Positions 2,052 to 58,667 of a stretch of DNA of 64,000 nt are shown one piece after another. The stretch spans positions 32,001 to 96,000 of the forward strand of contig VMGC01000002.1 of NCBI GenBank assembly GCA_007376385.1. The letters run 5' to 3'. The notes under the pieces are model-generated. The model saw only the letters and a program-made list of their open reading frames with translations. It made no database searches and was not told the origin of the DNA. The position numbers and the translations under genes were made by a program. Each line of letters opens with the position of its first letter. The first letter of the stretch is position 1. The DNA is from Parcubacteria group bacterium Gr01-1014_8 (lineage in GTDB: Bacteria > Patescibacteriota > Minisyncoccia > Phycocordibacterales > UBA2100).

Positions 2052-2066
2052 GGACGCTCGATGACC

Positions 2067-2149
2067 ATACTTCTTTCGGGCACGTGATTTTCCTGCTAGA
2101 AAATCACTCAAATCCTCGCCCGTCGGCTGCGGGGTCCCTCCAGAAGTAT
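2067..2149 (+). repeat. Conserved structured element downstream of a gene, copy 1 of 3 (outer stem ATACTTCT/AGAAGTAT, CCGGGCAC-like box CGGGCAC, inner hairpin, then CTGCGGGGTCCC box)
   Basis: Alignable with copies at 26511-26626 and 57700-57783; both stems covary between copies. Confidence 0.7.
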
Positions 2150-2306
2150 GGCCACGCTCGCTTAGAGTAGTCAATGCAAAAAAAGTCTTACATTTGGCGG
2201 CAAAACAACTTATAGTTACATCAGTAAGCTCTGGATTAGTATAGAAGTTAAGGAATCCGTTTTGCGGGCGTAGTTTAGTGGCTCTGTTTTGGATTGCGGC
2301 CGGTGT

Positions 2307-23854: not shown

Positions 23855-24075
23855 GAAATGCGAAAGCGCAGGTTTCGCATTTCCGAGCGACACAGACAGC
23901 AAAGGTTTAAAACCCCGCGGCTTGCCTGCCTGTGCGATGCACGCAGACAGGCCGCGGAATTTGGGAAACGAGCAGCGCTCGTTTTCCAGAGTCCAGGGCT
24001 TGCCCTGGGGGTTGAAACCTTTCATCCGACCACGCCGCGGCAGCCGGCAGGCGTCTGCCGCAAAGGCACATTTTC
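23855..24075 (+). repeat. Structured intergenic element, copy B of the hairpin/CCGAGC-box family (GAAATGCGAAA..TTTCGCATTTC hairpin, CCGAGCGACACAGACAGCAAAGGTTTAAAACCCCGCGGCTTGCC core, internal palindromes, then GGGTTGAAACCTTTCAT)
   Basis: 50-nt core differs from copy C at 31361-31412 by one mismatch; lies between pyrF and pyrE. Confidence 0.6.
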
Positions 24076-25792: not shown

Positions 25793-25912
25793 TAAAGGTT
25801 CCTCATTGAACCTATGTTGACTCCTCGCTCCGAAGTGAACATGCGTACATGCCCGCTTCCCTCGCAACGCTCGTCAATGAAAGGGTCTTCTTGTCTAGAG
25901 CGAGGGAGTGAT

Positions 25913-26020
25913 ATACCCCGTGAGATATGTATAAAAAAGGCATCTTAACTAGCTGATTATTCATTTGAATTTATAGATTGTGATGAGAAATTTGGAGTGT
26001 ACCTATCTCATGGGGTATAC
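25913..26020 (+). promoter_or_regulatory. Inverted box pair ATACCCCGTGAGATA ... TATCTCATGGGGTATAC around a 76-nt spacer, about 25 nt upstream of the 26045 start
   Basis: Family member; arms pair G:U as RNA. Confidence 0.55.
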
Positions 26021-26044
26021 TTCTCACGACAGGCGCTTGTAACC

Positions 26045-26503
26045 ATGAAGTCGATAATTTCGATCGTAGCAGTGTTGCTGATGGCAGGAGTCGCGTACAT
26101 TATATGGCCGCAGTTCGCGAATGCACCGCAAATAGATGATCCTAGCGCGACAGAACGGGTCTCGGAACAGAAGAATGTACCGGTGGATGAGCAATTTGCA
26201 ACACTTATTACGTACACAGATGGGGGGTATAGCCCGCAAACGGTTTCAATAAAAAAAGGTCAGACAGTCAGGTTCGTTAATAACGCAGAACGCCAGGATA
26301 CATGGCCTGCGTCCGCCATACATCCCACCCATTCGATCTATCCGCAAAAAACGGACAGCGATTGTCTAGGGAGTTCATTCGATCCATGCCACGGATTAAA
26401 GCCGGGAGAGTTCTGGGAGTTTACGTTCAATGAAGTCGGGGAGTGGGGTTTCCATGACCACTTGCATCCGTCGAAGTTCGGGAAGATCCTCGTTACTGAA
26501 TAG
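26045..26503 (+). CDS. Secreted cupredoxin-like small protein (possible copper-binding beta-sandwich)
   Basis: Signal/anchor MKSIISIVAVLLMAGVAYI, then beta-rich region with His/Cys/His/Met-type ligand candidates (HPTHSIYP, CHGLKPGEFWEF, HDHLHP). Confidence 0.4.
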   Translation: MKSIISIVAVLLMAGVAYIIWPQFANAPQIDDPSATERVSEQKNVPVDEQFATLITYTDGGYSPQTVSIKKGQTVRFVNNAERQDTWPASAIHPTHSIYPQKTDSDCLGSSFDPCHGLKPGEFWEFTFNEVGEWGFHDHLHPSKFGKILVTE

Positions 26504-26510
26504 AGAGAGA

Positions 26511-26626
26511 TACTCGGCGGGGGTATGTGTTTTTCCGGGCACCGATCTTTCTTGGAAGAAAGATCCTCGAGTCCTCGGTCGTCACCTGCGGGGTCCCTGC
26601 GAAACACATACCCCCGTGCTCGCCGG
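26511..26626 (+). repeat. Conserved structured element downstream of a gene, copy 2 of 3 (outer stem GGGGGTATGTGTTT/AAACACATACCCCC, CCGGGCAC, inner hairpin GATCTTTCTT/AAGAAAGATC, CTGCGGGGTCCC)
   Basis: See the copies at 2067-2149 and 57700-57783; sits between convergent genes. Confidence 0.7.
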
Positions 26627-26651: not shown

Positions 26652-27578
26652 CTATTTTTGGGCGTGCAATGTAAGATAGATATCCTCTAGAGCTTTCACG
26701 GCGTCTCCCGCAGCTATGTTATTTTGATGGAAAAGGCCGTCGGTCGAATCGCCAGCTGCCCAAATACCTGGCGTTGAGGTGCGCTGCGTGCGGGGGTCAA
26801 CCTTAATACGCGCCCACTCGTTCAATTCCACAACTCCTTTAGCAAGATCTGTCGACGGCACCATGCCGATCTCCACGAAAATGCCAGCGGCAGGGATCTC
26901 CGATGTTTTTCCCGTTGCCGTGTTCTTAACGACAATGCTTTGCACGAACTGCCCTCCTTTTATTTCAATGGGCGCGGTATTGGTAAGCGCTTTCATATTC
27001 GGATGTTTGAGGACAGCTTCTACCGTCGAGGCATCTGCTTTCGAGAAATCTGGGCCGCGATGCAGCAGCGTGACTGATTTTGCATACGCAAGAAGCTGCG
27101 CTGCCGTCTCGAACCCAGCGTTGCCCCCGCCGACAACGATAGTATCTTGGTCTGCGAAAAGAGGTCCGTCGCATGATGCGCAATACGTGAGCCCTTTATT
27201 CTCGTACTCCTTTGCACCAGGGATCTCGAGTTGTTTTCGAAAGCCGCCTGTTGCGATGAGAATTGCCCGCGTATCGTATGCGCTTTTATTTGTTTTTACT
27301 GAAAAGCCTTTCTCGGTTTTTTCTATTTTTTCAACTCGTTCGCCGATGTGTATATCCAGGCCCTGGCTCGCATACGCCCTCAAGTGGCCTTCGAACGCCT
27401 TCGCGAGGTCTTGCCCTGTTATTTTCTCAGTGCCTATCCAGTTCTGTATCTCATTTGAATCAAAACTCTGTCCTCCTATCTTCTCTGCAACGAGAACTGT
27501 CTTGAGGCGTTTTCTCGCGGCGTATACGCCGGCAGATACTCCTGCTGGCCCGCCTCCGATTATGACTAGATCGTACAT
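26652..27578 (-). CDS. trxB: Thioredoxin-disulfide reductase
   Basis: GGGPAG FAD motif, redox-active CASCDG and the NADPH-binding GGGNAG. Confidence 0.9.
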   Translation of the reverse strand: MYDLVIIGGGPAGVSAGVYAARKRLKTVLVAEKIGGQSFDSNEIQNWIGTEKITGQDLAKAFEGHLRAYASQGLDIHIGERVEKIEKTEKGFSVKTNKSAYDTRAILIATGGFRKQLEIPGAKEYENKGLTYCASCDGPLFADQDTIVVGGGNAGFETAAQLLAYAKSVTLLHRGPDFSKADASTVEAVLKHPNMKALTNTAPIEIKGGQFVQSIVVKNTATGKTSEIPAAGIFVEIGMVPSTDLAKGVVELNEWARIKVDPRTQRTSTPGIWAAGDSTDGLFHQNNIAAGDAVKALEDIYLTLHAQK

Positions 27579-28988: not shown

Positions 28989-29096
28989 GTTGACCCCGTG
29001 AGATAAACATGGTGACGTTCGAGTCGAACATGTGGTTTTGTTGTGGCTCTCAAGCACCGCCTAACAATAAGGAATGGGTTATCTCACGGGGTTGAC
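28989..29096 (+). promoter_or_regulatory. Inverted box pair GTTGACCCCGTGAGATAA ... TTATCTCACGGGGTTGAC (18-nt perfect inverted repeat, 72-nt spacer) in the ftsA-ftsZ intergenic region
   Basis: Family member with extended arms. Confidence 0.55.
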
Positions 29097-29137
29097 TTTA
29101 TCTATCGTTTATTGCGGCTAGCGAGGAATCGAGGCGA

Positions 29138-29290
29138 GAGATTGCTCTCATCTCGTCCGAGCGACGACGCAACATACGGGTCGAATACCCCGCGGCTTGC
29201 CGCGGGTGAGGACGTGCGAAGCGCGTTCCTCATGGTGGGGCTTGCCCCGTGGTATGAATACCCTTTTTATTCCCTGGTGTACGAGAGGGA
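29138..29290 (+). repeat. Hairpin/CCGAGC-box family copy F plus three GC-rich hairpins (CCCGCGGCTTGCCGCGGG; GAGGACGTGCGAAGCGCGTTCCTC; GGGGCTTGCCCC)
   Basis: Shares CCCCGCGGCTTGCC with copies B and C. Confidence 0.5.
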
Positions 29291-31340: not shown

Positions 31341-31434
31341 GAAACGCAGAAGAGCACTTTTGCATTTCCGAGCGACGCAGACAGCAAAGGTTTAAAACCC
31401 CGCGGCTTGCCCGTATGGGTTGAAACCTTTCATA
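31341..31434 (+). repeat. Hairpin/CCGAGC-box family copy C, with the same 50-nt core as copy B, directly followed by GGGTTGAAACCTTTCAT
   Basis: GCATTTCCGAGCGACGCAGACAGCAAAGGTTTAAAACCCCGCGGCTTGCC; potential stem AAAGGTTT/AAACCTTT. Confidence 0.6.
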
Positions 31435-32623: not shown

Positions 32624-32759
32624 ATTAGATTTTGTTAGCGAATAAAATGAGCTTAGAAAATCTTATACCCTGTTAAATACGACCTTTCCAAGGTCGTCCA
32701 GCCTCCGGCGGGATTTAACAGGGTTTAGAAAAATATAGTCGCTCATATTCATTCGCTCG

Positions 32760-33416: not shown

Positions 33417-33699
33417 AAAGTGACTTCAGGCGGGTACATCGCGCGCATTCTACTACTTAACAGTAATTGACACCAAGCGGGAGGGGTGTTGTATGTGGAA
33501 AACAATATATTTTTTCTCGCACGGATATTTTTTTGCTAAAAAAGTTCGCTCGGTATTCCTCTCGCTGAACCCGAGCGCATATTTCCGGCGATATGTGCCC
33601 TTATGCTTCAACGCGCAACTCCTCACTTCATTCGGAGACCCAGGCTTGCGCGTTTCCAGAGATTCAGCGAGAGGAATACCCGCTTGAATGAAAAATATT

Positions 33700-33761
33700 T
33701 ATTGGCGAGCGTTGCGAGTGACGCGAAAATGTACTCATTTTCATGTCCGAGCCGGGGAGCC
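33700..33761 (+). repeat. Hairpin/CCGAGC-box family copy D (GCGAGCGTTGCGAG, GAAAATG-N4-CATTTTC, ATGTCCGAGCCGGGGAGCC)
   Basis: Family member between lepB and pth. Confidence 0.5.
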
Positions 33762-33940
33762 AAAACAGGGTCGAGTGCCCTTTATCTGCTATGATGTTTC
33801 GTTATGACCCGGTAGTAGAATTTCGGCTTGTCTTGTCTAAATCGAATAACACAATTAATCTATATATTCAAAGATGACCCTATGACGTTTTTACGACCAC
33901 GACCTGCGCGTCGCGCCAGCCGAAATTCCACTAACCGGGT

Positions 33941-34992: not shown

Positions 34993-35034
34993 ACGACTTA
35001 AGCAACAGGTTTCAGAGTCATCCGAATGTCCGAG

Positions 35035-35760
35035 GTTCGACCTCGGACATGTTGTGCTTAATCGGTATTAAGCTTGTATGCAAGCCACTCATTTATGTGC
35101 TTTTTGAATTCGGAAGGTGTTGAGAAATATTCCGGCATCGCTTTAGCGTCAATCAGCTTATTTTCAGGACGTTCCACTCCCGAAAAATCGAGATAGCTTG
35201 AATAAGGATACCTTTCTAGAGATTTTAAATTCGCGAGAGCAGACAAAGTCTCCTTTTCAAACGTCTTCGTAAGTGCGACTGGATTCAGATGCACGTACGC
35301 TATGAGGTATTTGAGATACCGATCATCTTTTGCATGAACGGCTTTGAATTTTCCTTGAAGGAGTGCTCCGTTGCGTTCATGTCGTTTGTTGAAATACATC
35401 GTATAGCCTGTTATGACTTTCTGCATGAATTTACTTATCCCGCCCACGCCAATTTCTCGGAGTATCAGGTGAAAATGATTTGGCATGAGGCAATACGCCG
35501 CGACGTCCACAAGTGGAGAGCCACGCGGCAGTTCCAAAGCTTCACGCAGTGAGTATCTACTTAGCCGTTCATCGAGCCGTTCTTCCTGGTTGCAGGAATA
35601 AAGGAGGGTTAGGAACCGCTCATAGTCACCGCGTGAGCTAAAAATCGAGCGCTTCTCGGTTCCCCGATTGTAGACATGATATATCTCATCGCTTGCGAAC
35701 TCTATTTGCCGTGTCACCCGGTGATTATAAAACAAATGTCCGAGGTCGAACCTCGGACAT
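35035..35760. mobile_element. Y1 transposase (IS200/RayT-type) gene flanked by inverted 25-nt palindromic REP-like hairpins ATGTCCGAGGTTCGACCTCGGACAT (35035-35059) and ATGTCCGAGGTCGAACCTCGGACAT (35736-35760)
   Basis: The two hairpins are exact reverse complements of each other and bracket the transposase ORF. Confidence 0.75.
35058..35735 (-). CDS. IS200/IS605-like or REP-associated tyrosine (Y1, HuH) transposase
   Basis: YHVYNRG, YCLMPNHFHLIL (HuH), KYLIAYVHLNPV (catalytic Tyr region). Confidence 0.75.
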   Translation of the reverse strand: MFYNHRVTRQIEFASDEIYHVYNRGTEKRSIFSSRGDYERFLTLLYSCNQEERLDERLSRYSLREALELPRGSPLVDVAAYCLMPNHFHLILREIGVGGISKFMQKVITGYTMYFNKRHERNGALLQGKFKAVHAKDDRYLKYLIAYVHLNPVALTKTFEKETLSALANLKSLERYPYSSYLDFSGVERPENKLIDAKAMPEYFSTPSEFKKHINEWLAYKLNTD

Positions 35761-35767
35761 TGTGGAT

Positions 35768-35852
35768 AAAATAGTTTTCAAGCGCGTCGAGCATGCGCTT
35801 GAGACAATTATCCTCGATGGCGGAATGAAAGCGATGAATCAGTTCAACTAGA
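35768..35852 (+). pseudogene. Diverged duplicate of the pth 3-prime end (encodes ...KIVFKRVEHALETIILDGGMKAMNQFN*)
   Basis: About 75 percent nucleotide identity to 34450-34534 (pth ...TVFKRVENALESIIVDGPERAMNQFNS*). Confidence 0.6.
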
Positions 35853-42743: not shown

Positions 42744-44042
42744 ATGACCAAACTTTCATTTTTTCAGATAGTCGTACTCTCATCCTTCGGTGCTCTCGCG
42801 ATCGCGGGCGTAATGATATTTGCGTTCGTGGTCGGCGGCTCCGGAGGCGAGGGCATAGGAGAAGTGAAAATTTGGGGCACGCTGGACGCTGGCGCATTTG
42901 CAACGATACTCCGTCAGCTTGCGGAAGAGGACACTCGCATGAAAGCTGTAACGTATACCCAGAAAGATCAATCAACCTTCGATCGGGATGTGACCAATGC
43001 GCTCGCGTCCGGTGCGGGGCCTGACCTGTTCGTTCTCCGCAGTGATTTCGCAGAAAAGGAGGCAGCGAAGGTGTCGGCAATACCGTATGCGCTATTTTCG
43101 GAAGAACAATTTCAAAATACGTTCATCGAAGCGGCGAACGTATACATGGGTCCGGAAGGAGTGCGCGCCGTTCCGCTTGTTGTGGACCCGCTCGTACTCT
43201 ACTGGAATCGCGACATGCTGGCCTCATCGGGCTTTGCGAAACCGCCCGTGTTTTGGGACGAGTTGTTCGACATGGCGACAAAAATGACCAAAAAAGACGA
43301 TACGAATTCCATCATAAAGAGTACCATCGCGCTCGGTGAACATCAGAACGTGGATCATGCGAAAGAGATACTCTCGCTTCTCATCATGCAAGCTCAAGGC
43401 CGCATCACGCAAAGAGATGGTACGGGGAAATTGCAGACGGCGCTTGTGGCGCGCGCAGGAGATGTACAGCAGCCGACAGAATCGGCGCTCCGGTACTACA
43501 CTGAATTTGCGAACCCTATCAAAGCGCACTACACATGGAATCGCGCACTTCGAGAGAGCCGTTCAGCGTTCGCATCGGGAGATCTCGCACTTTATATAGG
43601 CCTCGCAAGCGAGGAGCCGTTGGTACGCCGCATCAATCCGAATTTGAACTTCGCTATTGCGCCAGTGCCGCAGATACGGGGCGGTGCTCGGAGCTTGAAT
43701 GTGGGACACGTATACGCATTTGCCGTACCAAAAGCGGCCAAGAATCTGCAAGGCGCTCTCACGGTTGCCTATACTCTTGCATCAATGGATACGTCAAAAC
43801 TATTCTCTAAGGCTCTTGGCATGCCTTCTGCAAGGAGAGATGTTCTTGCGGAGCCTGCGACGGGCAATGATGATCTTTTCAACAAGCAAGCCATCCTTGC
43901 GAGAGCGTGGGTAGACCCGGACCCGGAAAAAACTGATGTTATATTTAGAGACATGATACAGAGTGTCACCAGCGGCTCTGCGCGTCTCGGCGAAGCGATA
44001 CAGAGGGCGGATAAGACGATGAGCGACCTTCTCAGCATATGA
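42744..44042 (+). CDS. Membrane-anchored extracellular solute-binding protein (ABC substrate-binding, family 1-like)
   Basis: N-terminal TM helix then a periplasmic binding fold of about 400 aa. Confidence 0.55.
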   Translation: MTKLSFFQIVVLSSFGALAIAGVMIFAFVVGGSGGEGIGEVKIWGTLDAGAFATILRQLAEEDTRMKAVTYTQKDQSTFDRDVTNALASGAGPDLFVLRSDFAEKEAAKVSAIPYALFSEEQFQNTFIEAANVYMGPEGVRAVPLVVDPLVLYWNRDMLASSGFAKPPVFWDELFDMATKMTKKDDTNSIIKSTIALGEHQNVDHAKEILSLLIMQAQGRITQRDGTGKLQTALVARAGDVQQPTESALRYYTEFANPIKAHYTWNRALRESRSAFASGDLALYIGLASEEPLVRRINPNLNFAIAPVPQIRGGARSLNVGHVYAFAVPKAAKNLQGALTVAYTLASMDTSKLFSKALGMPSARRDVLAEPATGNDDLFNKQAILARAWVDPDPEKTDVIFRDMIQSVTSGSARLGEAIQRADKTMSDLLSI

Positions 44043-44144
44043 CCCCATGAGAGAAATACTTTCGATATACCTATGAACATGATTGAACAGATCTACATGT
44101 GGGAGACAACAAAACATTCAAGCAGTCTCTCTCACGGGGTATGA
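44043..44144 (+). promoter_or_regulatory. Variant box pair TATGACCCCATGAGAGAAAT ... TCTCTCACGGGGTATG. The 5-prime box overlaps the TGA stop of 42744..44042 and the 3-prime box abuts the ATG of 44141..44488
   Basis: Same arrangement as between infB and rbfA (50709-50814). Confidence 0.55.
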
Positions 44145-50380: not shown

Positions 50381-50710
50381 CTACTTCCGGGTCAGTTCAT
50401 CTATTCGCTGTCGATTTTCTTCCCCAATATCAAGCACAAAATCGACGGTGGGAACGTTCATTAAAACCGTCTTTGCTTTCAAAAAATCGTGAAAGTCGGT
50501 TCGCACGCGCTTAAGGAACGCGATGGCATCTCCTTGCTGCTCCTTCGGAAGCACCGAAACGAATATCGACACATTTTTTAGGTTGGGGGAAATGTCTGCA
50601 CGGGTCACAGTGATGAGAGATTTGCGGTTTGATTCTCGAGCGATGAAGTCAGCTGCGTGGTGCGCCATCGCTTCGGCAACTTTAATTTGTCGGCGGGACG
50701 GAGCGTTCAT
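50381..50710 (-). CDS. rbfA: Ribosome-binding factor A
   Basis: N-terminal SRRQIKVAEAM aligns to the RbfA consensus (RxxRVAxxM); lies downstream of infB. Confidence 0.8.
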   Translation of the reverse strand: MNAPSRRQIKVAEAMAHHAADFIARESNRKSLITVTRADISPNLKNVSIFVSVLPKEQQGDAIAFLKRVRTDFHDFLKAKTVLMNVPTVDFVLDIGEENRQRIDELTRK

Positions 50711-50814
50711 ACCCCGTGAGAGAAACTATCTAAAGCTACTAAGCTTGGTCGCATGCTGTTGGAAAGGATTGATTTCATATATATTTTAAAGAATATTCTC
50801 TCATGGGGTCATAC
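50709..50814 (-). promoter_or_regulatory. Variant box pair bridging the infB stop and the rbfA start (on the minus strand: TGACCCCATGAGAGAATAT ... TTTCTCTCACGGGGT-ATG)
   Basis: One arm overlaps the infB TGA, the other abuts the rbfA ATG; 14-bp potential RNA stem. Confidence 0.55.
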
Positions 50815-52317: not shown

Positions 52318-52351
52318 AGGGAGTTCGTGATGCCATACGAATTGGGCGAGT

Positions 52352-52455
52352 ATACCCCATGAGATAAAAAACTCATAGCCCAGTGATATAGGGTATTTGT
52401 CAAATCAAAATTCGTCGCGCAAAAAGTGTCAAGCGATCTATCTCACGGGGTATAC
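52352..52455 (+). promoter_or_regulatory. Inverted box pair ATACCCCATGAGATA ... TATCTCACGGGGTATAC (72-nt spacer) between divergent infB and the cysteine desulfurase gene
   Basis: Family member. Confidence 0.55.
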
Positions 52456-52533
52456 GCCCAAAAGTCAAAATTTGAAAGTCAGCGGCGCGTGCAGTCACTT
52501 CCGAAATTAAGTATTTAAGCCTAGAATCACGGC

Positions 52534-53715: not shown

Positions 53716-53860
53716 ACTTGTGTCTGGTTTCGCGGGAGCAATTTTAAGTGATGTTTCAGCGTGCGCTTAAAGAGCAATTGATGTATGAATGAAGCACAAA
53801 GGCGAAACGAAAAATGCCAAAGTTAGTGCTCGGACGTTGCAAAATCTCGTCCATGATACT

Positions 53861-54069
53861 CTACCCCGTGAGATAAAGTCATTCGGTGTATGTGGAGGTG
53901 ATGTTGCTTGGTGACTAATATCGAACGCGGCTCATAACTTTTCGCCATATCTCATGGGGTCTACCCCGTGAGATAACTGTTCGTCTTTTGTTTCGAATTG
54001 TAGTTCATGTATCCATAGTACAATGTCGGTAATGAGACATCTATACACCTCCTATCTCATGGGGTATAT
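53861..54069 (+). promoter_or_regulatory. Two tandem inverted box pairs: CTACCCCGTGAGATAA ... ATATCTCATGGGGT|CTACCCCGTGAGATAAC ... TATCTCATGGGGTATAT, ending 13 nt before the 54083 start
   Basis: The central 29-nt near-perfect palindrome is formed by abutting boxes. Confidence 0.55.
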
Positions 54070-54082
54070 ATAGAAGAAAGCT

Positions 54083-54992: not shown

Positions 54993-57680
54993 ATGACACC
55001 ATTCAACAATTTCACCACCAAAGCAAAGGAGGCCATTCAAAGAGCTCACCAGCTTGCCGTCGAACGCGGCCACAACCAGGTTTCGACCCTTCATCTTCTG
55101 GCCGCTCTCATGATGCAAGAGGAAAGCATGGTTATCCCGATGCTGGACCAGCTTGATATTGATACGGCGCATCTTACCGACTCTATACTGGAACAGATAG
55201 AAGGAGGGACCGGGACGACCGTCTCGCCATCGTTCCAGCTGTATCTCACACCGGAGTTGGTGCGAGTGTTCGAAGGCGCGCCGCGCATCGCTGCAAGTTT
55301 CAACGACCAATTCGTTTCTCCTGAGCATTTGCTTCTTGGCGTTGCCGAGCATCCGGGCCCTGCTGTAGACCTTCTCCAGCGATTTCGTATCGATAGAGCC
55401 GCACTGGCTCGCATTCTTGCAGATATCAAAGAAGGCAAGATACGCGACGCAGAAGAGCCGAAGAAGCCGCGCGCGCTCACTCGCTTCGCTCGTTCGCTCA
55501 CCGAGCGCGCACGCGAAAACAAACTTGACCCTGTCATCGGGCGCGATACTGAAATAATCCGCGTCATTCAAATTCTTTCCCGCCGCACAAAGAACAATCC
55601 AATCCTCATAGGCGAAGCTGGAGTCGGAAAAACCGCCGTCGCAGAAGGTCTTGCCCAGCGCATGGCCTCCGGCGACGTGCCGGAATCGCTTCGCGGGAAG
55701 GAGCTCGTCCAGCTCGACCTCGGGCTTCTCGTTGCAGGTACGAAATACCGCGGAGAATTCGAGGAACGATTGAAGGCTGTCATGAAGGAAGTTGAGAAGG
55801 CGGAAGGGAAGATAATTCTATTTGTTGACGAGCTGCATACGCTGATAGGTGCAGGGGCAGCGGACGGCGCACTTGATGCGTCGAATATGCTCAAGCCGGC
55901 TCTCGCTCGTGGCGAGATACGCGTTGTCGGCGCAACTACTCTCAAGGAATACCAGCGCCACATCGAACACGATGCAGCGTTCACTCGCCGCTTTCAGCCT
56001 GTCTATGTGAACGAGCCCTCGCTCGACGATACAGTCGCAATTTTACGCGGTCTCAAGGAACGTTATGAGCTTTTTCACGGTGTCCACATTACAGACGATG
56101 CCATCATTTCTGCGGCACAACTTTCCAGCCGCTATATCACAGAGAGATTTCTGCCGGACAAAGCCATAGACCTCATAGACGAAGCCGCTTCCGCGCTCCG
56201 ACTCTCGCTTGAGAACAAGCCGCCAGCCCTCGAAGAGGCGCATCGCAAAGTAACCCGTCTCGAGATTGAAAAAGAGGCGCTCAAGAAAGAATCCGACGCA
56301 AGCGAAGGCAAAGCTCGCACGCGCGTCAAATCCATCGAGAAAGAGATAGCAGACCTTCGCGACGGAACGCGCGAGCTCGAAATGAAATGGAAGAACGAGA
56401 AAGAAACGTTGACCGAAATTGGTCGCCTCAAGAAAGAATTGGAAGCGGCTCGGCTTGAAGCAGAAGGTGCCGAAGCCAGAAGCGACCTTACGAAAACCGC
56501 TGAAATACGGTACGGTCGCATTCCGAATCTCGAAAGGGACCTCGACACAGCGTCGAAAAAACTTCGCAAATTGCAATCCACCAGGCGCGTACTCCGCGAA
56601 GACATCACGTCAGAAGATATTGCGGCAGTAGTCTCGCGCTGGACGGGCGTGCCGGTCTCTCGAATGCTCGAGGAAGAAGCAGAAAAACTCTCTCGCATGG
56701 AAGCCGACATAAAGAAACGCATCATCGGTCAAGACGAGGCAGTCCAGAAAGTTGCGGATGCCATCAAGCGAAGCCGCGCAGGGATTGCAGACCCGAACAG
56801 ACCAGTTGGCTCGTTTCTATTCCTTGGTCCAACCGGAGTTGGAAAAACAGAGCTCACCAAAGCGCTTGCAGAATTTCTTTTCAACAGCGAAAAGGCGCTT
56901 ATACGCGTAGACATGTCCGAGTACATGGAAAAGCACTCTGTCTCCAAAATGATTGGTTCGCCTCCAGGATATGTCGGACACGACGAAGGTGGGGGACTCA
57001 CGGAATTGGTTCGTCATCGTCCGTACTCTGTCATTCTCTTCGACGAGATCGAAAAAGCGCATCCGGAAGTATTCAACGTGCTTCTGCAGGTCTTGGACAA
57101 CGGCAGGCTCACAGATTCAAAGGGGCGCACCGTGAACTTCAAGAATACTGTCATCATCATGACGTCGAACATCGGCAGCGAGCACATAGACAAAATGTCG
57201 AATCTTGGCTTCAACCAGGGTCCGGCGGGTTCGGCACACGAACAGTACGAGCAGGTGAAAGTAAAAGTAATGAGCGCGCTCAAGGATTTCTTCCGACCGG
57301 AATTCTTGAACCGTCTCGATGAGATAGTGCTCTTCAACATCCTCTCGCCTGAATCGGTGCAGACAATAGTGCGCATTCAGGTAGACCAAGTCGTAAAGAG
57401 GCTCGAAGAAAAACACATCAAGCTCACGTTCTCGGATGCAGTTATCGAACACCTCGCAAAGGAGGGCTACAACCCGCAATACGGTGCGCGTCCGCTGAAA
57501 CGACTTATCCAGAGCAAAGTTCTAACCGCGGTTGCAAACATGATGGTCGCGAGGGGAGTCCTCGAAGGCGGCTCCGTCCATGTTGATATGAAAGATGGCG
57601 AATTCTCGTTCGATGTACGAAAGAGCGCTGAACGTGTACGAGGAGCAAGAGCGAGGGCGAAATCGGCGAGTGCTGCATAA
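54993..57680 (+). CDS. clpB: ATP-dependent chaperone ClpB
   Basis: Two AAA+ modules (GEAGVGKT; GPTGVGKT) separated by a long coiled-coil M-domain. Confidence 0.9.
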
Positions 57681-57699
57681 AAAGGGTCGCTCGAAGGTA

Positions 57700-57783
57700 G
57701 TGCTTCCTCCGGGCACGGATTTTTCTTACTAGAAAAATCCTCAAAATCCTCGGTCGTCACCTGCGGGGTCCCCCCAGAAGCAC
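57700..57783 (+). repeat. Conserved structured element downstream of a gene, copy 3 of 3 (outer stem GTGCTTC/GAAGCAC, CCGGGCAC, inner hairpin GGATTTTTCTT/AAGAAAAATCC, CTGCGGGGTCCC)
   Basis: See the copies at 2067-2149 and 26511-26626; sits between convergent clpB and 57816..58667. Confidence 0.7.
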
Positions 57784-57815
57784 AACCTCACTCGCTGGAG
57801 ACGGGGGAGCGTTCG

Positions 57816-58667
57816 CTACTTGTCTGTAGCCTTAGGTTTTTTCATCTTGAGTAAAATTTCTTCCACAGTATCCTTAAATTTGGCAGGCAGTTGATCCAAT
57901 ACTTCTCGAACTTCAGCCATAGTTTCTGCCTTCATTCCAGGGAACACCTCCTCTTTCAAGGTTTCGAGGCATCTTGGAATTCTCCACTCACCCGGGGTCC
58001 CCATTGTTTCCTTTATGGTCCGTAAAGGAATTAATATTGCGCCCATTCGTCCTTCCTTAGAATACATATATGTTTCCAGTTCACGAATTCGCATTTCAAG
58101 ATCGGTAATTGTGAGTTGTTGTCGATTTTGAGTCGCGCCTTGCGAGGCAACATCCTTCTGTTGTGATACAGAAGCGGTGGTTAACTTGGAAATTTTCTCA
58201 TCCACTGCACGTATTTCTTCAATCATTTCACCTTTTTCTTTTGACAATGCCAATGCAGTAGTTGCGGACGATTTAGCCAAAATATCCTCTTCCGATTTCT
58301 TTATTAGAAGCTTTGTGTCTTCGCGAATTTCGTTGGATAGAGCTCCAATCTCTGCCCTCAATGCGGTCACGGAAGACGTTACTTGGGATTCAAGTGCTTG
58401 GCGTGCATCTACGATACTTGACGACTGTTTTTCCAATTCTTTCTCTATGGGTCGTAAACTCATCAAATAAAATATCCCACCAAGAGCCAATACAACGGTA
58501 ATTGCAAATCCAATATGCTCAAGGGACGCTGTGTTTAATTGGTGAATCAAATCAAGCTGCCATCTTACAAGGTCAGATCCGGAAATTGGTGTAACTGCAG
58601 ATATTGTCGTTGTTGCCATACGGAATGACACTACGCCTGCCGTCAGTTCCTTGCAAGCGACTAGCAT
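57816..58667 (-). CDS. Hypothetical membrane-anchored coiled-coil protein
   Basis: One TM helix followed by heptad-rich sequence. Confidence 0.45.
   Translation of the reverse strand: MLVACKELTAGVVSFRMATTTISAVTPISGSDLVRWQLDLIHQLNTASLEHIGFAITVVLALGGIFYLMSLRPIEKELEKQSSSIVDARQALESQVTSSVTALRAEIGALSNEIREDTKLLIKKSEEDILAKSSATTALALSKEKGEMIEEIRAVDEKISKLTTASVSQQKDVASQGATQNRQQLTITDLEMRIRELETYMYSKEGRMGAILIPLRTIKETMGTPGEWRIPRCLETLKEEVFPGMKAETMAEVREVLDQLPAKFKDTVEEILLKMKKPKATDK

Follow-up and report, generated by a model that had tools for sequence, protein, structure and literature searches.

In the window, i.e. the whole stretch of 64,000 nucleotides that was analysed, the ORF at 54993-57680 encodes ClpB, as indicated by its Pfam domains (Clp_N, two AAA modules, ClpB_D2-small); its nearest homologues carry the name Candidatus Kaiserbacteria, within Patescibacteria, to which the host genome is assigned as well. 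Twenty nucleotides past the stop codon of this ORF (57678-57680) begins a short structured element, which an earlier note on this DNA had placed downstream of clpB; the sequence quoted there is present, letter for letter, at 57700-57783. This copy, the third in the window, its parts and its surroundings are the following.

54993-57680, forward strand: clpB, upstream neighbour of copy 3, outside the element and given as context only
57687-57693, forward strand: left direct repeat TCGCTCG, paired with TCACTCG
57695-57788, no strand: full hairpin of copy 3, from the minimum-energy fold of both strands
57700-57783, forward strand: copy 3 of the element, from fold, alignment and covariance model
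57700-57706 / 57777-57783, model strand: closing stem P1
57707-57710 and 57773-57776, model strand: junctions
57711-57716 / 57768-57772, model strand: P2, with C57714 bulged
57717-57740, model strand: P3 hairpin
57741-57747, model strand: J3/4
57748-57767, model strand: P4, with an inner 3-bp stem (57752-57754 / 57759-57761) and the loop CGTC
57788-57794, forward strand: right direct repeat TCACTCG, paired with TCGCTCG
57816-58667, reverse strand: 283-aa ORF with no assigned function, convergent downstream neighbour of copy 3, given as context only

The hairpin of copy 3 is extended outwards by 4 bp, AGGT (57695-57698) facing ACCT (57785-57788). The element is repeated, as had been proposed: exactly three copies are found in the 64 kb, at about 2065-2151, about 26518-26616 and 57700-57783. 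When the window was searched by the covariance model with filters off, the three copies scored 94-100 bits, and the next best match 15 bits. Another ~18 kb of the same genome, taken from public assemblies, contains no further copy. The two other copies are located as follows.

2061-2155, forward strand: copy 1, from repeat finding, alignment and fold
26518-26616, forward strand: copy 2, with a 15-bp closing stem formed by CGGGGGTATGTGTTT / AAACACATACCCCCG

In copy 1 the closing stem is formed by CCATACTTCT / AGAAGTATGG (2065-2074 / 2142-2151), and reaches 14 bp on the complementary strand. This copy lies 9-13 nt past the end of a DivIC-like ORF (1677-2051), and is flanked by perfect 7-bp direct repeats, ACGCTCG, at 2054-2060 and 2154-2160. 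The public gene calls feature, across copy 1 and a tRNA gene, a 184-aa ORF (L121 10190-10744, corresponding to 1866-2420 of the window, minus strand), almost certainly a spurious gene. Copy 2 is found between two convergent ORFs, one cupredoxin-like (25997-26503, forward strand), the other thioredoxin-reductase-like (26652-27578, reverse strand). Two of the three window copies sit between convergent genes, and all are spaced 25-31 kb apart, among housekeeping genes.

The 27-mer ATCCTCGGTCGTCACCTGCGGGGTCCC of copy 3 had been reported to match copy 2 (26571-26597) exactly. The identity holds for 26 nt rather than 27, because of a single mismatch at the first base of ATCCTCGGTCGTCACCTGCGGGGTCCC; a match of this type appeared in 0 of 100 dinucleotide shuffles. 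By alignment and by folding, the stems are unlike between copies yet complementary within each, in agreement with the earlier description.

The element measures 85-160 nt. Its core, about 60 nt long and conserved in sequence, is a three-way junction of P2, P3 and P4, enclosed by the closing stem P1, 7-24 bp long and wholly different in sequence among the window copies. A short, pyrimidine-rich internal loop separates P1 from P2, which consists of GGG(C)AC / GTCCC. P3 is an A/T-rich hairpin of 9-10 bp (GATTTTTC...GAAAAATC), followed by the linker TC-RAR-T and by the G/C-rich P4, composed of TCCTCG, a 3-bp stem with its tetraloop, and CTGCGGG.

The occurrence of the element outside the window was evaluated by models and by patterns. 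No Rfam 15 family matches any window copy, when the entire window is analysed at gathering thresholds; for 57600-57900, at E<=10, only chance-level matches to snoRNAs and frameshift elements are obtained. Rfam is also negative at the element in the two other loci, L001 (E<=1) and L124 (6400-7600, E<=5), where copies were found. The Rfam tRNA model identifies ten tRNAs in the window and none at the element, and a tRNA or tRNA-like identity was accordingly rejected. In the literature searched and in Rfam 15, no previously described family matching the element was found. A strict core pattern, run on 185,579 species genomes, gave one true match, in the Patescibacteria MAG H43-bin093_1 (L001/L046), and a looser two-gap pattern, run on 241 million metagenome records, led to the same contig only; the remaining matches of the large scans, about 70, are chance occurrences in high-GC DNA. 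Two scans of viral contigs gave no true match, the GenBank phage collection no match, and the plasmid collection one chance-level partial match only.

Both large scans required a near-exact core, and would have missed a fifth, divergent copy, in which GCGGGAGGTTCC replaces GCGGGGTCC. This copy, located at L124 7335-7418 in a third genome, a relative of MAG H43-bin093_1, was found by the covariance model, scoring 46 bits with model R1 and 74 bits with model R2. The known total is of five distinct copies, from at least three genomes. In three clade members, whose ClpB proteins are 86-93% identical, the element is absent within 10-20 kb of clpB, and plain hairpins stand after the gene. The results of the scans and the clade members devoid of the element thus define a rare and patchy family. 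How closely the two host lineages are related could not be measured on the fetched DNA, in which they have no gene in common that is suitable.

Within the window, a compact Y-shaped hairpin is seen at 32667-32724: a 12-bp stem closes it, and encloses an 8-bp hairpin as well as the hairpin CC.GCC-UCC-GGC.GG. It shows a core-like architecture and a similar P4, and runs antisense to the genes on both sides. With model R2, filters off, its score is 14.9 bits (E=0.07); its fold has a z of -5.8, and it may be a distant relative of the element.

The ability of the five copies to share a common structure was evaluated on their alignment: 94.5% of the cells are standard pairs, and 16 of the 29 pairs are changed on both sides. 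In the control, obtained by shifting the 3' partners along the alignment by 1-3 columns, 47-57% of the cells are paired and 0-3 pairs are changed on both sides. The earlier label of "covarying structured element" is well founded: P1, P3 and the small hairpin P4b keep pairing through two-sided changes, and so does P2 when the fifth copy is included, its CGGG(C)AC/GTCCC being turned into CGGAAC/GTTCCG in L124. Both strands of the element, moreover, fold better than shuffles (z -3.7 to -11). The extent of pairing, the two-sided changes and the slid controls therefore indicate, on five sequences, that the structure is real. The covariation is here no proof of an RNA function, as it may also be produced by selection acting on a DNA strand in folded form, or by template switching: compensatory changes occur in the single-stranded DNA hairpins of REPINs (PMC3116915), and template switching in inverted repeats can make a compensatory change in one step (PMC8794818). 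The core is identical at 26 of 26 positions in copies whose stems have diverged to saturation, which indicates a strong constraint; a host-beneficial RNA would explain the constraint equally well.

The genes found upstream of the copies are unrelated to each other, and encode a DivIC-like protein, a cupredoxin-like protein, ClpB and a 167-aa protein without assigned function. A functional RNA tied to clpB, as implied by the earlier note, is not sustained by this distribution, nor by the lack of the element in relatives with closely similar ClpB proteins; furthermore, the unit behaves as an indel at orthologous sites, and one copy is antisense, behind a canonical terminator. A mobile structured repeat is a better description than a clpB-associated regulatory RNA.

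The orthologous neighbourhoods of L001 were fetched from relatives by means of the 167-aa protein encoded upstream; gene order is conserved. Between the stop of the 167-aa ORF and the conserved leader of a PG_binding gene, L001 carries about 116 nt, which comprise the closing stem; L124, L126, L127 and L130 carry 13 unrelated bases at the same site. L124 features its own copy 0.9 kb farther, after the PG_binding gene and on the opposite strand, where L126 and L130 are empty; this copy is found behind the canonical terminator of the PG_binding gene, antisense to both neighbours. The whole unit, including the closing stem, is gained or lost at orthologous sites, and the element can occupy different loci, in either orientation relative to its neighbours. 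For copy 3 an empty site is not definable, because the sequences following clpB in the relatives do not align with it.

The outer 12 bp of the closing stem are common to L001 and L124 (GGCCGTATCCCC / GGGGA(T/C)ACGGCC). As this outer stem is shared at different loci, stem and core move as one, and the stem was no host hairpin already in place. A closing stem derived from a prior host terminator, with the core inserted in its loop, was rejected as a general explanation, because the empty sites contain no hairpin, the stem is found at two loci, and hairpins are rare after genes. Stems may also be nested: compared to L124, L001 has an additional 12-bp helical segment on both arms. In L124 (7299-7449) the copy is contained within a further perfect 13-bp palindrome, GAGCATGTTTGAA ... 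TTCAAACATGCTC, which is missing at the empty site of L130 and, relative to L130, is part of the insertion too. The nesting in L124 could be explained by a copy inserted in the loop of a different hairpin, or by a stem that grew in steps.

Direct repeats of 7-9 bp flank three to four of the copies, with 7/7 matching positions for copy 1, 7/8 for copy 3, 7/8 for the L124 copy and 6/8 for that of L001, while copy 2 is about at chance level. For copies 1, 3 and L124, repeats as good are each found at 0.6-1.7% of 5000 random positions, a figure to be read considering that the element boundaries were picked by eye, flexibly. CTCG, whose frequency in the window is one per 179 nt, adjoins the stem in all six flanks of the window copies.

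The leader of about 110 nt, conserved upstream of the PG_binding/purple-acid-phosphatase-N gene, features a hairpin that does not vary, GUUCAUGAGG...CGUCUUCAUGAGC, and another stem, in which one pair is compensatory. It shows no Rfam match in L001 or L124, the two loci scanned, and is located at the following positions.

L001 3143-3256: PG_binding leader
L124 6441-6580: PG_binding leader
L126 10490-10627: PG_binding leader
L130 995-1133: PG_binding leader

Weak matches to the cspA thermoregulator model are present on the minus strand of L001 (758-1041) and L125 (2304-2586), where they reach 30-31 bits (E about 5e-5), the gathering score being 78; the one in L125 covers a called cold-shock-domain gene (2351-2554) along with its upstream leader.

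Other repeats were noticed in the window. A second, commoner family is composed of units of about 105 nt, with inverted repeats of 17-19 bp (TATACCCCGTGAGATAA ... TTATCTCACGGGGTATA) and unrelated interiors. Every unit stops shortly before the start of a gene, and has a right arm terminating in TATACT; the family could represent a promoter/operator pair, or a classical MITE. Its units, in window coordinates, are the following.

9984-10089: second-family unit
25912-26022: second-family unit
28990-29098: second-family unit
44042-44142: second-family unit
50708-50810: second-family unit
52351-52457: second-family unit
53860-53966: second-family unit
53960-54071: second-family unit

An intergenic repeat of 54 nt, ending in GGTTTAAAACCCCGCGGCTTGCC, is found at 23873-23926 and 31358-31411 (96% identical), with partial copies at 29179-29201 and 33698-33769. 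The perfect palindrome AATGTCCGAGGT-TCG-ACCTCGGACAT is found at 35025-35073 and 35735-35783, at both ends of a minus-strand gene (35058-35735).

Position and base-pair chemistry favour different strands of the element. Four of the five copies are on the same strand as the upstream gene, and start 9-14 nt past its stop codon; for two of the four, the available spacer is of about 140-255 nt. The complementary strand is instead favoured by wobble pairs: at seven positions or more, what is C·A on the model strand is G·U on its complement (two in P1 of copy 1, two in P1 of L001, one each in P1 of copy 3 and L124, one in P4b of L001), while about two show the opposite. In four copies the complement is also more stable than the model strand (-45.0/-36.0, -41.7/-34.7, -79.9/-70.9 and -86.1/-78.6 kcal/mol, complement/model strand); in copy 2 the two are tied (-52.4 kcal/mol for the complement, -52.3 for the model strand). 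Unpaired regions are pyrimidine-rich on the model strand and purine-rich on the complement. No convincing promoter for the complement was found at copy 1 or L001; TTTGCATT is common to the sequences upstream of copies 1 and 2, with no usable -10 box, and a promoter of its own for the complementary strand was rejected. The conflict between context and base-pair chemistry fits a DNA-level or selfish element more easily than one fixed transcript.

GC skew is positive in each 8-kb segment of the window (1-64000), gene orientation being mixed, which suggests that the window lies on one replichore; parB is located about 10 kb past its right end. Given the positive skew, deamination biased towards the exposed strand would be expected to produce a wobble asymmetry opposite to that observed.

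Copies 1, 2 and 3 feature no T-run after P1, as a canonical intrinsic terminator would; in L001, CGATTTTGC follows the 24-bp stem. Terminator-like sites are not enriched in the window (14, against 17.5 expected), and perfect hairpins after genes are rare in it. From the position of the copies, a secondary role as transcript-end hairpin is plausible. Neither a transposase nor a partner gene was identified in the window and the fetched loci, which contain housekeeping genes only; the window was covered by Pfam scans of 30 previously unannotated ORFs and, at its ends, by the Pfam labels of the public calls.

We give about an even chance to the explanation that the repeat is a small non-autonomous mobile hairpin element, maybe acting also as a transcript-end hairpin. 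Like MITEs and REPINs, it would be mobilised in trans, by an enzyme whose gene does not lie close to the copies. This enzyme would recognise the invariant core, probably as a folded single strand, and the closing stem would only need to pair. Copies would persist where they are harmless, just after stop codons; if transcribed there, the stable hairpin would probably serve as a terminator or as 3' protection too, the element occupying the place where clpB relatives carry plain hairpins. Against mobility may be counted the flanking repeats, which are imperfect and, for copy 2, at chance level, and the finding of no autonomous parent or candidate transposase in the window and fetched loci. The location of four of the five copies at 9-14 nt past a same-strand stop would fit a selected 3'-UTR function too, and the statistics of context are weak, as only five distinct copies are known.

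Like REPs and REPINs, the element consists of short, extragenic, non-coding hairpin units, present in several copies per genome. REPs are often located at gene 3' ends, where they act as transcript-end structures. REPINs, in contrast, feature conserved outer REP sequences with a GTAG head and a variable spacer, while the element has a conserved inner core and a variable outer stem; in the five-copy alignment, no inverted doublet of REP palindromes with GTAG-type heads is seen. Copies are few, about 3 per 82 kb, and no RAYT (Y1 transposase) gene was seen in the same ~82 kb of the host genome. The preservation of the hairpin through compensatory changes is a shared feature (PMC3116915). MITEs, such as Correia, RUP and ERIC, are similarly small, non-coding and intergenic, and differ in presence or absence between relatives: the element is small, non-coding, multicopy and presence-polymorphic as well, and some of its flanking direct repeats resemble target-site duplications. 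MITE families share, however, terminal inverted repeats with a parent insertion sequence, while the three window copies have closing stems unrelated in sequence, and hence lack the conserved terminal inverted repeat typical of classical MITEs; only L001 and L124 share 12 bp. Hairpin-only ("I-shaped") or bidirectional terminators are resembled in the very stable stem, in the position 9-20 nt past stops, and in the location of two of three window copies between convergent genes. The element differs from them in the conserved 60-nt core, in the lack of a U-tract (except after L001), and in being an indel between relatives.

A structured RNA selected by the host, i.e. a cis-acting 3'-UTR module or 3'-UTR-derived small RNAs spread by duplication, is unlikely. 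The module might be a terminator, an exonuclease block or a protein-binding site; the small RNAs might pair, through exposed C-rich UCCUC motifs, with Shine-Dalgarno-like sequences, and two such motifs are found around the junction on the model strand. An invariant core combined with compensatory stems is the pattern of paralogous RNA genes, and the position of four of the five copies shortly after the stop, on the strand of the upstream gene, is, in two copies, unlikely to be due to chance, because the spacer is of about 140-255 nt. A host RNA is less easily reconciled with the absence of the element from close relatives and orthologous sites, and with the L124 copy, antisense to both neighbours and placed between a canonical terminator and the promoter-like region of the next gene. 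Wobble pairs and fold energies (four of the five copies) point to the strand opposite to the model one, for which no promoter is evident at copy 1 or L001; on the model strand, the pyrimidine-rich unpaired regions would be unusual among structured RNAs. Ordinary host terminator hairpins, similar by chance or convergence, would agree with the plain hairpins standing in clpB relatives at the same place, but are refuted: a 26-nt exact match, covariation and covariance-model matches at 95-100 bits cannot be due to chance, and in the window neither terminator-like sites nor perfect hairpins after genes are frequent.

A folded single-stranded DNA site for recombination or transposition, used by a tyrosine or HUH enzyme and resembling attC, the CTX-phage attP hairpin, IS200/IS605 ends or REP elements, would be a specific mechanism within the mobile-element reading rather than a separate nature, and we regard it as distinctly improbable. 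One active strand is indicated by the asymmetry of wobbles and fold energies, and REPINs provide a precedent of compensatory changes in a single-stranded DNA hairpin (PMC3116915). Most copies, like attC, directly follow an ORF, whose complementary strand folds better; the structure is kept over the outer sequence, length is variable, and a branched end is possible. The three window copies share one orientation in a region of uniformly positive GC skew, suggesting one replichore; by the same skew, however, the better-folding strand would be the leading-strand template, not the most exposed one. The outer ends of the element (ATGACCATAC, CGGGGGTATG, AGGTAGTGC, GGCCGTATCC) contain no R''/R' boxes of attC (RYYYAAC / GTTRRRY), neither cassette arrays nor a nearby integrase are present, the neighbours being housekeeping genes, and both a GTAG-type REP head and, in the window, a Y1 transposase are lacking. 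IS200/IS605-type transposition leaves no target duplication, while direct repeats are seen here.

Even less credit is given to a novel small RNA with catalytic or other activity, e.g. a self-cleaving ribozyme travelling with a mobile or retro-element. RNAs of this kind typically combine an invariant junction with freely varying stems, occur in several copies per genome, and are patchily distributed. The invariant TCCTCG...CTGCGGG and junction bases, the variable stems, the patchy distribution and the lack of matches to any known family are consistent with such a role. Conserved motifs of hammerhead, twister, pistol, hatchet, HDV or hairpin ribozymes are absent, however, as is a nearby reverse transcriptase; in the L124 copy neither the loop of P4 nor the internal loop between P1 and P2 is conserved, and for this reason few unpaired bases are invariant. 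An origin from a tRNA 3'-half or T-loop, an HDV-like or twister-like fold, a K-turn and CsrA sites were also considered: judged by sequence, none of them fits all copies.

The small mobile hairpin element thus remains the favoured explanation. Its design is the reverse of that of REPINs and MITEs, a conserved inner junction being combined with a freely varying closing stem. There is a small chance that the invariant junction is the working part of a novel mobile system of Candidate Phyla Radiation bacteria, either a single-strand recombination site or a self-copying active RNA. In the latter version, a module self-cleaving or recognised by a reverse transcriptase would copy itself along with variable lengths of the closing stem, which would account for the nested stems of L001 and L124. 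Interest would be wider, were the core catalytic or a new recombination site.

For annotation, strong covariation and a position following a gene are insufficient to call a regulatory RNA, and the element accounts for the spurious 184-aa gene call over copy 1. The genomes of Patescibacteria are tiny and streamlined, and the repeat families described for them are, to our knowledge, few. In such a streamlined genome, a structured mobile non-coding element would be a marker of recent genome dynamics, and would point the way to its mobilising enzyme.
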